This document shows, piece by piece, positions 6,335-19,030 of a DNA stretch of 34,052 bases (its first letter is position 1; the number at the start of each line of letters is the position of its first letter). The notes under the pieces are model-generated. The model did not search any database, was not told the DNA's origin, and worked only from the letters and a program-made list of their open reading frames with translations. The stretch lies in the IMG/VR virus record IMGVR_UViG_3300037516_000265, positions 1 through 34,052 of that record; one strand, written 5' to 3'. Position numbers and translations under genes: made by a program. The DNA is from a virus. Lineage: Duplodnaviria; Caudoviricetes.

Positions 6335-6677
6335 ACACTTTCTTCAAATCATTGTATTGGTCCCTCAAACAAGATGCACAAGAAGTATATTGTAAGTTTC
6401 CTGTTTGGAATATTCTGTTATGTGTTCGTTGCATTAACATAGAATCTACTAGGGATGTTTCTGCTTTCTTTAATCCTCCTTCATTTAACCATAGATATTC
6501 GTCTTCATTAAGGCAAAGTGGTTTCTTTCTATAAGACCAAAGTTTGTTATATTTTGCTTTACGTTCATCGCATCCACAATCTTCCCCTAATATAAACTTT
6601 GCTACCTTATCAATTCCTGTTGCTTGAAGTACATTCTCTATTGTATCTCCTAGTCCTTGTGCTTTTCTTTTAGCCAT
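6315..6677 (-). CDS. Phage protein with Cys pairs (DCGC...SCASC), possible Zn binding
   Basis: GLGDTIENV...EDCGCDERK...TSCASC; lies between the sigma factor and terminase. Confidence 0.75.
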   Translation of the reverse strand: MAKRKAQGLGDTIENVLQATGIDKVAKFILGEDCGCDERKAKYNKLWSYRKKPLCLNEDEYLWLNEGGLKKAETSLVDSMLMQRTHNRIFQTGNLQYTSCASCLRDQYNDLKKVYETYNN

Positions 6678-7174
6678 TCGTAATCTTCGTTTAAGTAATC
6701 TTCATAGTCTTCATAAAGTAAACTCTGTAATTGCTTTTTTGTTCTATTGGTGGTGTAGAATATACAAGAAAGTGATATCCCAGTCTCTTTTGAAAGCTCT
6801 CTCATCGATTTACCACTAGTAACGTATAGTTCAAATAGCATTTTGTCAAACCAATCGACATTGTTTAGCTCGTCTCTAACGCGTTTATTTAACTCCTCGT
6901 ATGCAATTATACTTTCGGTCTCACAAACGGCTTCAGAAACGGTCTTATCTAGTTCAAACGTTAATGGTTCTTTCTTTAGGAAGTCGAAGTAAATGTTTCG
7001 TAAAGTAATCCATACGAATGATGACGTTATCTTTTGGTCTGGCTTGATGTATTTATCTAGTCGAAGGTACATTTCTTGCACTAAATCCTCGGCTTCAGTC
7101 TTCGCGCCAAAGGACCGAGCGATATTCACCCAGTCCTTATGTTTTTGTGCTATTATTTCTATTTGCTTAATCAT
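6650..7174 (-). CDS. RNA polymerase sigma-70/ECF-like sigma factor
   Basis: Region 2-like AEDLVQEMYLRL...FVWITLRNIYFDFLKK; region 4 HTH SMRELSKETGISLSCIF; ATG at 7174 preferred over the track start at 7225. Confidence 0.85.
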   Translation of the reverse strand: MIKQIEIIAQKHKDWVNIARSFGAKTEAEDLVQEMYLRLDKYIKPDQKITSSFVWITLRNIYFDFLKKEPLTFELDKTVSEAVCETESIIAYEELNKRVRDELNNVDWFDKMLFELYVTSGKSMRELSKETGISLSCIFYTTNRTKKQLQSLLYEDYEDYLNEDYEWLKEKHKD

Positions 7175-7445
7175 GCTTTGTAATCTTCCAACTTTGAATC
7201 GTATTGAAAAACACTCCAGCTTCACGTTTTGATTCTTGAGCTTTCAAGTTGTAGTCTACTTCGACAACATCACCAACTCGATTGTATTTAAGAACGTTAT
7301 CCACTTTTGCTTCACCAAATACTTCAAAGTTACATGACTGTGCATAATCTACGTCGTTTTCCATAACGTGAACATACAACTTTTTGTAGTTTCCTACTTC
7401 GATTACCTCTCCAATGTGTGTAATCACTCCAATAAATTTACCCAT
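7167..7445 (-). CDS. DUF3127-like OB-fold single-stranded DNA-binding protein
   Basis: YAQSCNFEVFG...VGDVVEVDYNLKAQE...FFNTIQSWKI matches the Bacteroidota DUF3127 pattern. Confidence 0.75.
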   Translation of the reverse strand: MGKFIGVITHIGEVIEVGNYKKLYVHVMENDVDYAQSCNFEVFGEAKVDNVLKYNRVGDVVEVDYNLKAQESKREAGVFFNTIQSWKITKHD

Positions 7446-11686: not shown

Positions 11687-11777
11687 AAAAAAGCCCACTA
11701 ATCAGAGGTCGCTGTCTCGTCATAGTAGGCATTTAAAAAGTTCTTAATGTATCAGCGACAATACAGATATAAAGATA
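11687..11777 (-). ncRNA. Structured 5' leader A: promoter, hairpin and terminator-like hairpin with complementary loops
   Basis: TATCTTTA; TGTAT-[TGTCGCTG]-ATACA; GCCTACTA..GAG[ACAGCGAC]CTC..TAGTGGGC-TTTTTT; GTCGCTG/CAGCGAC are complementary. Confidence 0.65.
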
Positions 11778-12992
11778 CTAAATATATTTCTTAAATTGTG
11801 CTTCTGTAAAGTTTTTTTTCTGTTTTACTACATTGTGAATTTGCTCTGTTAAACTACCTTTGCCATACACAAAATAAACATCGTTTTCTTTACGGTCTTT
11901 AGTCGTTAATCTGTCGATGGATTGAATGTAATTTGTCCCACTAAACCCAAAATTAAAGAGTATTAAGCAATCTGCTGCACTTAAATTAATACCCATTGCA
12001 GAACTATACTGCTGTCCTATATAATGTTTATCGGTTGTATTAAACTCTTCGATATCCATTGTATGATTAGGAAATGTGAACTGAAGTAAATGCAACTCCT
12101 CGATGTAATAATAGAATATAGCTAGCTTTTTACCTTTGAAATAGTCTTTTATGAATAGCGCTTTTGATTCATCCGTAATCATACTAGAACCGCTTTCAAA
12201 CTTAATCGTACCGCTTTCTAGTTGATGTATCTTACTCATCATTTTTGTTCCTGAATCTGCTAATATTACCTCTGATTTACCTTGAACTACCTTATCTTTC
12301 TTTAATATATCAATCACTTTTTTATTACAGCTATCGAAATATATTACTTTCTCGTTTACTTTGCTTTCGAACCCAGCTTCTTCTTGGGTAAATTTTAAAA
12401 TATATGGCTGTATTACTGCATCTATTAAATCTATTTTAGCACATGAATAGTCTTTAGCTGGCCCGTATGAAGTATAAATCATATTAGGAGTAGTAAACAC
12501 CTTGCACCACGCATAAAAGTTTTTATATTGATTAAATGGACTATAAGCACTCAGATAAAATTGATGGAATATTTGTGAATACGATTCAGATGCCATTGTT
12601 CCTGAAAGTAATATTAATGGAATACGTGAGAATCTTGATTTAAATTCCTTTGTTTTATTACTCGGTTTAGGGAATGCACCCATTCCATGCGCTTCATCTT
12701 GAATAACTACATCAAAATCATTATCTGTAACCTTAGATAGTGATTCATTATTGATAATAGTTAGGTTAAAAGTGAATCCAAAATCTCTATAGTCATCTTG
12801 AATCGAACTAATAGCCTTTTTCTTAGTTAAGAATAGAACTTTTTTAGCTCCGTATAGTCTACACGTTTCTAATGCAGTTGCTGATTTGCCAGTTCTAACA
12901 GAAAAATTTAGGTACACTATCTTCTTATCTTTTAATATTTCAACAGCTTTTTGTGATAGGTCAAGTTGGTACGAACGTAGTTGCTTTGTCAT
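11778..12992 (-). CDS. Superfamily 2 (DEAH) helicase
   Basis: Q motif LRSYQ, Walker A-like VRTGKS, DEAH, LSGT, GINLS, motif VI-like QSIDRL. Confidence 0.85.
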   Translation of the reverse strand: MTKQLRSYQLDLSQKAVEILKDKKIVYLNFSVRTGKSATALETCRLYGAKKVLFLTKKKAISSIQDDYRDFGFTFNLTIINNESLSKVTDNDFDVVIQDEAHGMGAFPKPSNKTKEFKSRFSRIPLILLSGTMASESYSQIFHQFYLSAYSPFNQYKNFYAWCKVFTTPNMIYTSYGPAKDYSCAKIDLIDAVIQPYILKFTQEEAGFESKVNEKVIYFDSCNKKVIDILKKDKVVQGKSEVILADSGTKMMSKIHQLESGTIKFESGSSMITDESKALFIKDYFKGKKLAIFYYYIEELHLLQFTFPNHTMDIEEFNTTDKHYIGQQYSSAMGINLSAADCLILFNFGFSGTNYIQSIDRLTTKDRKENDVYFVYGKGSLTEQIHNVVKQKKNFTEAQFKKYI

Positions 12993-13192
12993 AATTCTAT
13001 TTCGTTTAAATATTCATCAATTAAATATAACTTACCTTCTTTTTTTATAAATCCAAAGGCATCTTTTACATCGTAGTAATAGGAAAAAATTTCATGACTT
13101 TTACCTGACAATATCACATCGTACTCATTGATGCATTTTATGTATTTATCTATTGATTTTTTCATAGTCCTTTCATTTCTGGTAAATCCCAT
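12989..13192 (-). CDS. Hypothetical protein (up to 67 aa)
   Basis: ORF track; bridges primase and helicase with an ATGA overlap; start may be MKKSIDK. Confidence 0.65.
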   Translation of the reverse strand: MGFTRNERTMKKSIDKYIKCINEYDVILSGKSHEIFSYYYDVKDAFGFIKKEGKLYLIDEYLNEIEL

Positions 13193-15582
13193 ATGTCTGT
13201 TGATACCACTTTCTTTTGAGTTGTTATTTCAAACCATCTTTGACCTTGTGAATTACCTTCTTTATATTGCTTACCATGAAATTGGCAATACTTTTGAATC
13301 CACATGTTGAATCGTTTTGACTTTAGCCAGCTTCTAAAATCTTTATTTTCTTCAACAAAATTATCAAAGCAAATAGATTTAATGTGTCTATGGTCTTCAG
13401 AAATGTTTCCATCCCCCATCCACTCTAAGAATTCAGCAGAAGTCTCATTTATTAATTTACGATTTTCAAGATTTGTAAATTCAAATGGAACCAGTCCTTT
13501 CTCTAAATAATACTTTAAGCAATTAATCATGAAGTGGTCGAACCTAGCCCATTCTTGTGAGTTCCAGTCATCAAACAGCATGTGTCCAAATTCATCTAAT
13601 GGTGTGTGATTTGAATTAAAATAACTACTCATTTCTACCTCAAATTTTCTACGTTCAAAAGAACCACCAACACCACCAATAGTGTAGTTAGTTGTAATAA
13701 TTATTTTAGGAGATTTATTTACAGGAAGTTTAACAGCATCCTGACCTTTGTATTCCAAAGTTATCCCTTCAGTAATTAAAGAAAATAGATATTCAAAATT
13801 AAAGTTTTTCTTAACGTCATCAAATACTAACAACTGAGTGTCTACCGGAACTGCTTGGTAAGGGAATGACTTGTTAAATTCAAATGTTTTACCATCTATA
13901 GATGCTACTTTCTTCATTTTAGATAGTGCATTCCAAAATAAAGATTTACCACTACCACCATTTGGATTGTCTGAAATAGTTTCGTCGTTAAAAATAATTG
14001 CTTTATTGTTTGCGCTTGTCTTGTAGCTATGCATTAAATACCCTATAACACTTTTTAAAGAGTTGTATTTGTTTACATTTTTACTGCTTGCTAGCCATAG
14101 GAATGTCCTAAACTCACTTTCGTGGTGGTCTGCATCTATAAAGTCTCTATCAATTACTTGTTTCTTCCATACAAACCCATTTAGATTTTCATATTCTACC
14201 TTTTCAAATCTATCTTTGAATATTTTCAAAGCGCAATTCTTATAATAAATTATAGAAAAGTCTGGACCATCTTCCTCTATGTTAAATTTTGCAGTTTCTA
14301 ACATGGATAAGTATTGTGGTGTGAATGACTTTGTAGAGCCAGCAACTAAATCAAATGGATCTAAGTTGTCATTGTTCAATAGTTCATTTAACACATGGTC
14401 TTTAACTTGAAATTCCGTAACCTCGTCAACAAAATTACCATCCTTAGTAATGAAAGTAAATGTTTTTGATTTGTCAATAGGGAAATATTTAAAGAAGTTT
14501 TTATTTTCTAAATAGAATTTAAATTTATGGTGTGAAATAGTTAGTTTACCATCTTCATTGTAAGTCCAGAACTGATTAACATTAATTTTCTTTTTTTGCT
14601 CTAAAATTTCTGCTTCAATTTTTTCTTTAGAAAGTTCTGAGAATTGACTTGAAATATAATCATTTGATTTACCAACTAAAACCATATTGGAAATAGTCTT
14701 AATCTTTTGCTTATCTTCAAATTGTTTACTGCCAAAGTTAGAAGTATGCTTATAAGCTGAATTTATAAGTGCTAATATTTCATTACTATCAAAGTCTTTT
14801 TGTTGATTAGCTAAGATATATTTTTCAGCAATGTACTTTTCAATCCCAAAATCATTAAATGACAATGCTAATTTATGAAACGAATTGTTTCTATTAGTCC
14901 CATTGTACGACTTTTTAAACCATACCATTAATCTATTAGCAATTTGGTCTTGATCTACCAAAGGGATGTTCGTTACTACTCCTAATGTATTATTTATTTC
15001 TACTAATTCAGTTTGGATAAAGTCAACGTATAGACTAGATTCTTGGTTAATGTAAATATTAGGATCGTATGATTCAAAACATAGTCTAGAAATGTCTTGA
15101 CCTGATGTGTCAATTACACCTTCTCCATACTCTTTGTTTACCCAATTATAATAAGCTACAATTGATTTATAGTATTTATTATACTCGTCGTTTGATTCAA
15201 TTGGTGGTATTCTAACTAATGCTTTTAAACCATCCCCTGAAGGAGATACCCAACAAGCATTAATGTATTCATTGTTTGATAACTTTTCTTTTAATTCTTT
15301 TACTAAATCAAAGCTTTTTAACTTATCGAAATCAAGTATACATAATCCACTTGCTTTTTTTAATTCTGCTTTAGCTCTTTTGTTAAATGTCCCAGCAAAA
15401 GTAACAGCAGATAAAGAACCTTTAATCTCTTTCTTTTTTACGTCATCTAATTCAGAACGTAAAGATTCAATAGTTTTTCTAACATATCCATCTCTAATTC
15501 TTTCTAGGTAATATATAGCATCTTTAGGTCTTCCAACTGGTACTACTGAAGTTTTGTTTTTGTATAGGTCTATTAAATTCAT
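13162..15582 (-). CDS. Primase-helicase: BT4734/VirE-N AEP-type primase, PriCT, SF3/D5-like helicase
   Basis: SGLCILDFD, WVSPSGDGLK, DISRLCFESYDP (VirE-N); RNNSFHKLA (PriCT-like); GGSGKS Walker A, VFDD Walker B, IIITTN motif C. Confidence 0.88.
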   Translation of the reverse strand: MNLIDLYKNKTSVVPVGRPKDAIYYLERIRDGYVRKTIESLRSELDDVKKKEIKGSLSAVTFAGTFNKRAKAELKKASGLCILDFDKLKSFDLVKELKEKLSNNEYINACWVSPSGDGLKALVRIPPIESNDEYNKYYKSIVAYYNWVNKEYGEGVIDTSGQDISRLCFESYDPNIYINQESSLYVDFIQTELVEINNTLGVVTNIPLVDQDQIANRLMVWFKKSYNGTNRNNSFHKLALSFNDFGIEKYIAEKYILANQQKDFDSNEILALINSAYKHTSNFGSKQFEDKQKIKTISNMVLVGKSNDYISSQFSELSKEKIEAEILEQKKKINVNQFWTYNEDGKLTISHHKFKFYLENKNFFKYFPIDKSKTFTFITKDGNFVDEVTEFQVKDHVLNELLNNDNLDPFDLVAGSTKSFTPQYLSMLETAKFNIEEDGPDFSIIYYKNCALKIFKDRFEKVEYENLNGFVWKKQVIDRDFIDADHHESEFRTFLWLASSKNVNKYNSLKSVIGYLMHSYKTSANNKAIIFNDETISDNPNGGSGKSLFWNALSKMKKVASIDGKTFEFNKSFPYQAVPVDTQLLVFDDVKKNFNFEYLFSLITEGITLEYKGQDAVKLPVNKSPKIIITTNYTIGGVGGSFERRKFEVEMSSYFNSNHTPLDEFGHMLFDDWNSQEWARFDHFMINCLKYYLEKGLVPFEFTNLENRKLINETSAEFLEWMGDGNISEDHRHIKSICFDNFVEENKDFRSWLKSKRFNMWIQKYCQFHGKQYKEGNSQGQRWFEITTQKKVVSTDIWDLPEMKGL

Positions 15583-15823: not shown

Positions 15824-16303
15824 TTAATTTGTTTGTTTAATACAATTAAAGTTGTTTCTTATTTTCTTTGCTTGGAATGCATATACAACCATCTCGCTTA
15901 CTCCACATCGAACACCATTTATTAACTTGCCTTCAAAAGATTCTAGTTGTTCATTGGTTAAAATAATCTGTACAAAATTGTAATAATACCCACTAGCATC
16001 ATATTCACACATCGATAAACTTGAATTACTTCCTTGCACAACGGAACCATCTTCAAATTTAACATAAATATTTTGTCCTTTATCTATTATTTGTGGCTTG
16101 TAACAATTTACTTTTAATAATAATGCTGTATACCCACTGCTTTTATAAATTTGGTAACTACCTGATATTAATTTTATATAGCTAGTTTGGATAGTTCTTT
16201 CACCAGTATAGTCATCTACAATTGTTTTGACGTTACATTCTTGAGCAAATGAAGTTAAACCTATTGTTAAAATCGTTGCTCCTGTTAAAATAATTTTTTT
16301 CAT
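15824..16303 (-). CDS. Secreted/periplasmic protein with Sec signal peptide
   Basis: MKKIILTGATILTIGLTSFA|QE: classic signal peptide, mature chain starts with Gln as is typical in Bacteroidota; several Cys; in-frame upstream ATG at 16366 lies inside the RNA hairpin. Confidence 0.75.
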   Translation of the reverse strand: MKKIILTGATILTIGLTSFAQECNVKTIVDDYTGERTIQTSYIKLISGSYQIYKSSGYTALLLKVNCYKPQIIDKGQNIYVKFEDGSVVQGSNSSLSMCEYDASGYYYNFVQIILTNEQLESFEGKLINGVRCGVSEMVVYAFQAKKIRNNFNCIKQTN

Positions 16304-16321
16304 AATGAATAAATAATAAAT

Positions 16322-16427
16322 AAAAAAGCCCCTATTACTCCCAACACATCCTACCTTGTTGTTCATAATAGAGGCTTTAAAAATCTCTCTGTTCTTATAA
16401 TGTAGGATGAGAACGTCTACAAATATA
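16322..16427 (-). ncRNA. Structured 5' leader B: promoter, hairpin and terminator-like hairpin with complementary loops
   Basis: TATATTTG; GTTCT-[CATCCTACATTATA]-AGAAC; AAGCCTCTATTA..AACA[AGGTAGGATG]TGTT..TAATAGGGGCTT-TTTT; CATCCTAC/GTAGGATG are complementary. Confidence 0.7.
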
Positions 16428-16500: not shown

Positions 16501-16789
16501 GCAACACTTTTTTGCGTCAACAACACTTTTGCAACACATTTATTTTACGATGTGTTGCTAGTTAATTTATTGCATATCAACATCTTAACGCGCCTTGCAA
16601 CACATTCAACACATTTTTTACCCTATTTTAGTTTCGTCGGTAGGTTTAAAAATATTTGTTTTGTGTAAATTAATATATTATTAAAGGTAAATAATATAAG
16701 GGTATAGGGATTTTTTATGAAACGTGTTGCGTTTGCATGTAATTAGTTAAAAAGCAAAGAATTATAGACAACACATTTTGCAACACGTT
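16501..16789. repeat. Nine (G)CAACAC repeats in both orientations; putative replication origin
   Basis: CAACAC at 16502, 16521, 16532, 16598, 16607, 16769, 16781; GTGTTG at 16552, 16724; AT-rich core ~16645-16700; largest non-coding gap, upstream of the primase operon. Confidence 0.7.
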
Positions 16790-18937: not shown

Positions 18938-19030
18938 TTTACGTTTTTATTCACGTTGTTAAAAAAGAATGGAGCAGGAACGTGAACCTTTTGCATAAGA
19001 CCGCTAAGCCTTAACTCCATCGCAAATATA
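18938..19030 (-). ncRNA. Structured 5' leader C: three-way-junction RNA whose loop is complementary to two sites before the HNH start
   Basis: TATATTTG; ATGGAGT/GCTCCAT closing stem; TAAGGC[TTAGCG]GTCTTA; AGG[TTCACGTT]CCT; T run; then AACGTGAA and AACGTAAA just before ATG. Confidence 0.65.

Follow-up and report, generated by a model that had tools for sequence, protein, structure and literature searches.

A short leader lies between a promoter-type box and the replication genes of a small phage, and it raises the question of what two hairpins with complementary loops, one of them the hairpin of a predicted terminator, could do to the transcription of the genes behind them. The leader, termed leader B here, is encoded in the window, that is, the whole 34,052-nt stretch of DNA that was analyzed. 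The first-pass annotation had described two such kissing-loop leaders in this genome (A and B), and had proposed that they belong to a family of orthogonal RNA switches, with leader B gating read-through into a primase-helicase operon in the manner of plasmid antisense control of replication.

Anatomy of leader B and its surroundings

All features listed for leader B by the first-pass annotation were present, and the element lies on the minus strand (Table 1). The promoter box was read against the Bacteroidota -7 consensus and numbering, with G at -5, of PMC6847099. Transcription is predicted to start at about 16415, one base ahead of hairpin P1, which would give an RNA of about 95 nt up to the U tract. 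The loop of P1 is composed of the word X and a near-invariant ATTATA, which was present in 103 of 109 elements (the motif was fixed by the pattern in the word-free search and left free in the word-fixed search). A reading of ATTATA backwards as a sigma-70 -10 box was rejected, since Bacteroidota use another consensus (PMC6847099). The linker is 13 to 14 nt long in 91 of 109 elements by the parse used. In the predicted terminator, the outer stem P2 pairs AAAGCCTCTATTA (16378-16366) with TAATAGGGGCTTT (16337-16325) and runs into T6 at 16327-16322; above it lie a UGAA/GGAG internal loop and a 5-bp inner stem, P3, both omitted from the first-pass annotation, and a 10-nt apical loop that contains the word X'. 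Folded alone, the terminator hairpin reached -22.7 kcal/mol (z, -6.15; 0 of 200 shuffles as good), and folding of P1 alone was not significant (z, 0.69). Leader B has the stable, G+C-containing hairpin followed by a U tract that defines an intrinsic terminator; in 101 of 109 elements, 6 or more of 8 nt in this tract are U. It is one of only three strong hairpin-plus-T sites on the minus strand; a simple terminator scan misses it because the loop limit of that scan is 8 nt.

Table 1. Positions of the leaders, their parts, and the neighboring features in the window
Feature	Position	Strand	Basis
Bacteroidota -7 promoter box TATATTTG	16420..16427	-	Sequence and consensus of PMC6847099
Hairpin P1, 5 bp, 14-nt loop	16391..16414	-	GTTCT 16414-16410 / AGAAC 16395-16391
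Loop word X, CATCCTAC	16402..16409	-	Covaries with X'
Single-stranded linker, purine- then U-rich	16379..16390	-	Parse of elements
Predicted intrinsic terminator (P2, internal loop, P3, apical loop, U tract)	16322..16378	-	Fold and covariation
Loop word X', GTAGGATG	16347..16354	-	Exact 8-bp complement of X
GCAACAC repeat cluster, both orientations, directly upstream of the leader B promoter	16501..16787	.	
First gene after leader B, 159 aa, signal-peptide-like N terminus	15824..16303	-	Signal peptide judged by eye
Primase-helicase-type protein, 806 aa, third gene of the operon	13162..15582	-	PF08800; phrog_18375 DNA primase/helicase; phrog_28855
SF2-type DNA helicase, same operon as the primase-helicase	11778..12992	-	ResIII; phrog_62
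Leader A, same design as B, before the NUMOD4-HNH-AP2 endonuclease gene	11687..11777	-	Sequence

The window is a complete phage genome of ~33.9 kb with a terminal repeat of 127 nt, and its minus strand holds the recognizable genes. The host is probably a flavobacterium, since the structural genes cluster with those of Nonlabens phage P12024S and tblastn matches to the 806-aa primase are primase/helicase annotations in Flavobacteriia phages. The minus-strand genes from 16303 to 11778 abut or overlap. Leader B heads the primase-helicase operon here, and it heads replication operons in relatives; the first-pass claim of a link to this operon is upheld in this respect. Close relatives place other short, exported-looking proteins in the slot of the first gene. 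The 159-aa protein itself gave no match in Pfam and PHROG scans, and an atlas search with it returned unnamed Bacteroidota clusters only. It has 17 homologues, with an MKK start called in 11 of them, and its true start is most likely 16303 and not 16366. Superinfection exclusion is a possible role for the slot.

Upstream of the leader promoter, six of the seven GCAACAC copies in the genome sit within the repeat cluster, which is likely the replication origin. Separately, primase-helicase-type relatives (G002, G008, G011, G019, and, more weakly, G020) have a repeat word of their own in the same place, and genomes of the initiator-plus-helicase type are without a repeat cluster upstream of the leader promoter. 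Elsewhere in the window, another TATATTTG box, followed by a three-stem fold of ~55 nt and a U run, was seen at 18960-19030 (minus strand) ahead of a second NUMOD4-HNH gene; its folding was not significant (z about -1), and a tRNA search of the window, including this region, found none. A sigma-factor-like phage gene at 6650-7225 (minus strand), directly upstream of the terminase region, may drive the late genes.

Word match and covariation

The first-pass annotation had noted loop-loop pairing over 8 bp, and the two words are indeed exact complements in the window. A viral search with both words fixed returned 48 loci in which the spacing was 78-85 nt and the stems varied. With both words left free, at least 120 loci were found (about 280 stored stretches were estimated for one subtype). 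Among the matches listed, 93 of 102 unique ones had complementary words, 83 pairing at 8 of 8 positions and 10 at 7 of 8, and the other 9 paired at 4 or fewer. When X' was permuted among 87 unique word-blind cores, on average 13.8 and at most 24 cores paired at 7 or 8 of 8 in 2000 permutations, versus 78 observed, which excludes chance as the source of the match. A metagenome search, in which no promoter was required and six word positions were free, gave 107 unique matches from at least 120 loci (about 310 stored stretches estimated), of which 80 paired at 5 or 6 of 6 positions and 27 at 4 or fewer. In this promoter-blind search, a TAnnTTT[GA] box stood at leader spacing in 74 of the 78 true elements with enough flank, versus 1 of 27 chance matches. 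The pairing is strict: one G-U was found in X:X' among the 80 metagenomic elements. About 10% of elements (L105, L130, L071, L072, L132, and similar ones) have seven straight X:X' pairs, and in these a bulge could allow pairing of an additional G that lies one nucleotide beyond them.

Covariation over all helices was measured in 35 representatives, a set chosen for having the word match and so not blind to it; 96.8% of cells were paired, versus 36-45% in slid controls, and 25 of 28 pairs over the four helices showed compensatory change. These comprised 5 of 5 pairs in P1 (91% of cells paired), 11 of 11 in P2, 3 of 4 in P3, and 6 of 8 in X:X', where the other 2 are invariant. One-sided changes of the G-U type, 47 of them in P2, fix the strand and rule out a reading as a single-stranded DNA hairpin. 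By mutual information, X with X' was the top-ranked pair, and no alternative helix appeared among the top 45 pairs. An antiterminator helix between the linker and the terminator 5' arm was likewise rejected; this pairing was no better than permuted (40/200) and showed no covariation. A covariance model built without the subclass of the window still found leader B with 82 bits. Collectively, these sequence comparisons indicate that leader B is a real two-hairpin element with a strict word match and four covarying helices. The expectation of the first-pass annotation that a search would find further instances with covarying loops was borne out, with 32 spellings of X seen in all.

The proposed family of RNA switches stands as a set of kissing-loop leaders with covarying words. 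An orthogonal code is not supported: the rate of change in the word helix does not exceed that of ordinary stems, and 99 of 462 foreign word combinations still matched at 7 or more of 8 positions. Compensatory changes per pair numbered 8.1 in P1, 6.7 in P3, 4.9 in P2, and 4.5 in the kiss (6.0 per variable pair) on spanning trees of 54/66 cores, where the zero one-sided change in the kiss is due to the filter. Diversifying selection on the word was not supported by this comparison, words changing no faster per base pair than P1 or P3. Among leaders with identical P2 and P3, the words differ in 11 of 17 pairs.

Genomic position and subtypes

Nineteen of the 20 whole genomes examined carry the B subtype. 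A replication gene, counted as a DUF6291 or DnaD-like initiator, a DnaB-like helicase, or a member of the primase-helicase family, lies within five genes of the leader in 16 of these 19 by direct family match and in 2 more by likeness; in the remaining genome the downstream gene was not traced. Two carrier genomes have a second leader upstream, before a methyltransferase or a gene without known function. The first genes behind the leader fall into 25 families, and 49 of 107 belong to one cluster with initiator-like proteins; some are methyltransferases, HNH nucleases, or small unknown proteins and not replication genes. One and the same word precedes unrelated replication modules. The leader travels with function and not with a particular gene, heading initiator-plus-helicase and primase-helicase operons alike. 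Where two B-type leaders occur in one genome, their words differ in 3 of 3 cases, which is uninformative because the chance of a common word in two leaders drawn at random is only 7%.

A search for related loci with the primase of the window returned two. The closest primase relative, G001 (92%), has two leaders of other subtypes instead of B (L189 3440-3546 and 1717-1816, minus strand), with different loop layouts and words; leaders are thus exchanged between close relatives. A genome-contig search gave 18 matches, of which 7 were true elements, each of them on a MAG contig (1.6-33 kb). The covariance model matched 2 of 151 genomes of the genus of G024 with only 25 candidates scored per genome, which speaks weakly against an occurrence in prophages. 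When the leader was compared with cultured phages by BLASTN, only short chance matches resulted, and the kissing-loop leader was not found in P12024S, Leef_1, phi46:1, RAP44, or the half of MW202828 examined.

Leader A (11777-11687) is present as the first-pass annotation described it. Its words are 7 nt long (GTCGCTG and CAGCGAC), its internal loop is UGAC/UGAU, and the B-type covariance model gives it only 29.6 bits (E, 0.02). The A subtype was found ahead of NUMOD4-HNH genes. Of its 18 word-blind matches, 8 have the complementary word upstream, five of these being one identical sequence. A generic, promoter-anchored scanner found 28 matches in 27 genomes versus 0-3 in five shuffles. In the cultured phage mumin6-4, an A-type leader precedes the HNH gene (L234 11160-11258), and a version with the two loop types swapped between the hairpins precedes the helicase-primase genes. 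This loop-swapped version has three word pairs among Baltic isolates, and 9 of its 17 word-blind matches pair at 8 of 8. In filifjonk9-1 (L238 2749-2760) both the A-type leader and the HNH gene are missing and the flanking genes abut, so that promoter and leader travel with the endonuclease. Cultured Muminvirus and Lillamyvirus phages have three different words on hosts LMO6 and LMO9, and the mumin phages are described as virulent in PMC7077304. In phage morran9-1, an Rfam DUF805b RNA match (52 bits; L240 1757-1791) lies before gp040, away from the kissing-loop leader.

Candidate mode of action and relation to known systems

The reading that we favor, with about even confidence, is that the leader is a transcription attenuator in which loop-loop pairing hinders the predicted terminator from closing. 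Host RNA polymerase would start near 16415, and P1 would fold and display X. X' would emerge some 19 nt ahead of the last base of the terminator 3' arm and pair with X, so that the kiss should form before the stem is complete. The docked, tethered structure would slow zipping of the long, interrupted stem, and polymerase would then continue into the primase-helicase genes; where the stem prevails, transcription would stop and leave an RNA of ~95 nt. We lean toward a balance that is set kinetically, and short RNAs might lower this set point as they accumulate. Two public RNA runs consist of contigs, with records of up to 41 kb in the run labeled as RNA, and so do not bear on expression. The terminator has a median energy of -16.9 kcal/mol, P3 of -0.6, P1 of -0.9, and X:X' of -10.4. 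A strong terminator before essential genes would need an opener more than a helper, and the kiss is left as the opener because neither a competing helix nor a universal small protein was found; at the BLASTP level, at which a divergent antiterminator protein would be missed, no small non-structural protein family was common to all carriers. Ordinary strand-exchange antitermination is unlikely, since there is no alternative helix and the kiss is the only conserved candidate. That the loops can be swapped between the hairpins fits docking as the event that matters. Nevertheless, since P3 covaries and no part of X' lies outside the loop, the kiss and the full terminator may coexist, and the hairpin might just as well be stabilized by the kiss. 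Eight Watson-Crick pairs may also hold the kiss too firmly for switching, and the first genes without a replication function speak against the model.

The strongest competitor of the attenuator, which we consider doubtful, is a kiss that would stabilize a weak inner stem and promote termination, giving a compact RNA of ~95 nt; read-through would then depend on a factor of host or phage origin, able either to disrupt the kiss or to bind to the invariant loop letters. P3 alone, near -0.6 kcal/mol, is weak and covaries, the linker length is tightly kept, and the invariant unpaired letters AC-ATTATA and UGAA/GGA could be a protein site; however, the terminator is already strong without the kiss, no universal candidate protein was found, and the invariant letters differ between subtypes. 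Action in trans is a similarly tentative proposal. If finished terminators lose the kiss here, short RNAs with free loops could act in trans, in the way that IsrK targets its own long form and P4 CI RNA limits replication genes (PMC4825925). The predicted short terminated RNAs, with both loops free, might pair with nascent leaders and block the cis kiss. A lytic phage would in this way count its genome copies and throttle replication, and the word would tell self from non-self.

It is rather improbable that the element is a true riboswitch, with a small molecule or Mg2+ gating the kiss so that the phage senses the state of the host before replicating. The topology is that of the guanidine-IV riboswitch, conserved unpaired nucleotides adjoin the kiss, and several unrelated genes lie downstream, but a kiss of eight strict Watson-Crick pairs, at about -10 kcal/mol, would be expected to need no ligand, no nucleotide core is common to the B, A, and swapped subtypes, and the downstream genes point to no metabolite.

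Control as in plasmids or P4, with a separate antisense or trans-encoded RNA reading the word and giving immunity groups, is more improbable still. It would accord with 32 words and one G-U in 80 elements, and with near-identical leaders that differ only in the word (11/17 pairs; mumin versus stinky). Against it, words change no faster than P1 or P3, the window has no third copy of the word, and over 22 elements (20 genomes) 5 extra copies were found versus 8.0 expected, so there is no excess. Of 109 linker regions, 2 had an exact antisense TAnnTTTG box, and 3 such boxes were located in the 100 nt downstream; with neither an exact counter-promoter box here nor a third word copy, the plasmid-like antisense control suggested by the first-pass annotation is not supported. 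As for lysogenic immunity, 21 genomes, the window phage and 20 related carriers, were scanned, and none has a tyrosine integrase (PF00589) or an above-threshold match to HTH_3 repressors; PMC7077304 calls the cultured mumin carriers virulent. Thus, faster change of words, a separate antisense RNA, and lysogenic immunity are not supported by these comparisons.

We regard as highly improbable a coupling of read-through to translation in which the stem is opened by a ribosome that starts at the AUG in the terminator 5' arm. The ATG at 16366 is, as had been claimed, in frame with the gene at 16303, and an ATG is present at this place in 155 of 167 B-type elements; it is fused in frame in 3 of 6 elements of the window's own subclass and is in frame in leader A. 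It is not conserved as a design, however: only 18 of the 155 have it in frame with an uninterrupted path into the gene, and the length of the upstream open reading frame (uORF) depends on the word (2 to 40+ codons). The A of the AUG is a base-paired position that covaries from A-U to U-A, the UGA is part of the internal loop, and the loop-swapped subtype and the two G001 leaders have no AUG there. Finally, a leaky terminator of the ordinary kind whose 8-nt match arose by chance, for which only the nonsignificant folding of the 5' hairpin alone speaks, has a negligible probability given the permutation and word-blind tests and the 28 scanner matches in 27 genomes versus 0-3 in five shuffles, and for the structure it is refuted by covariation.

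If the attenuator model holds, the kiss would determine the extent to which the replication genes are transcribed. The leader family is widespread, as the estimates of about 280 and 310 stored stretches for one subtype indicate, and the carrier genomes show no repressor that would explain replication control. To our knowledge, such control is essentially undescribed in small lytic Bacteroidota phages. The cultured Muminvirus and Lillamyvirus carriers offer a bench system for the direction of control, its input, and word specificity. Were the trans reading true, co-infecting phages would have a means to tell self from non-self without a repressor or lysogeny, and a natural set of 30 or more programmable kissing-loop attenuators would be at hand for Bacteroidota.

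Among known systems, plasmids pT181 and pIP501 use antisense-RNA attenuators, in which a leader terminator gates the replication initiator and which need a counter-transcript and a mutually exclusive antiterminator helix. As there, loop sequences could define specificity; in contrast, no counter-transcript promoter and no competing antiterminator helix were found here. The CI RNA of phage P4 with seqA/seqC, and likewise the c4 antisense RNA motif (RF01695), also belong to leaders before phage replication genes, and according to PMC4825925 and PMC2864571 RNA-RNA pairing in the leader controls premature termination and limits the replication genes. In P4, however, a single RNA is flanked by two targets and the system provides lysogenic immunity, whereas two sites only, one of them in an intrinsic terminator, are present here and the carriers examined lack a tyrosine integrase. 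IsrK of Gifsy-1 has a promoter, a short terminated RNA, and partial read-through into an operon, with a model for the short RNA acting on its own long form; as described in PMC4825925, it acts mainly on translation via a required uORF, and the uORF of the kissing-loop leaders is not conserved.

Rfam covariance models gave no match at leader B with E up to 5 and none at the gathering score at the leaders of 14 relative loci, and RF01695 or related models matched neither leader B nor these loci. A published description of the kissing-loop leader family was not found in the mainly open-access literature; the 10,006 unnamed phage RNA candidates of PMC10690425 may include it. The closest likeness is to the guanidine-IV riboswitch (GGAM-1/mepA), which, according to PMC7736828 and PMC11611296, has the same order of 5' hairpin, linker, and terminator hairpin with kissing tips. 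There, the kissing loop with the terminator tip gives read-through, an ON switch, without using the strands of the terminator stem, and the same layout is seen here; the authors propose steric exclusion of the full stem (PMC7736828), and single-molecule work describes competition of kiss and stem, the kiss being lost once the stem is complete (PMC11611296). The terminated product was 93 nt in that assay, and the product predicted for leader B is of similar size. Unlike guanidine-IV, which precedes guanidine exporters (guanidine-related genes such as sugE or mepA), leader B has an 8-bp, freely variable kiss with no ligand known, and the genes downstream of these leaders are for replication, HNH nucleases, methylases, or unknown functions. 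A covarying kiss onto a terminator tip would give the guanidine-IV topology a second natural example, one that apparently lacks the ligand. The leaders form an RNA family that is absent from the catalogs and in which an already known topology takes on a new role.
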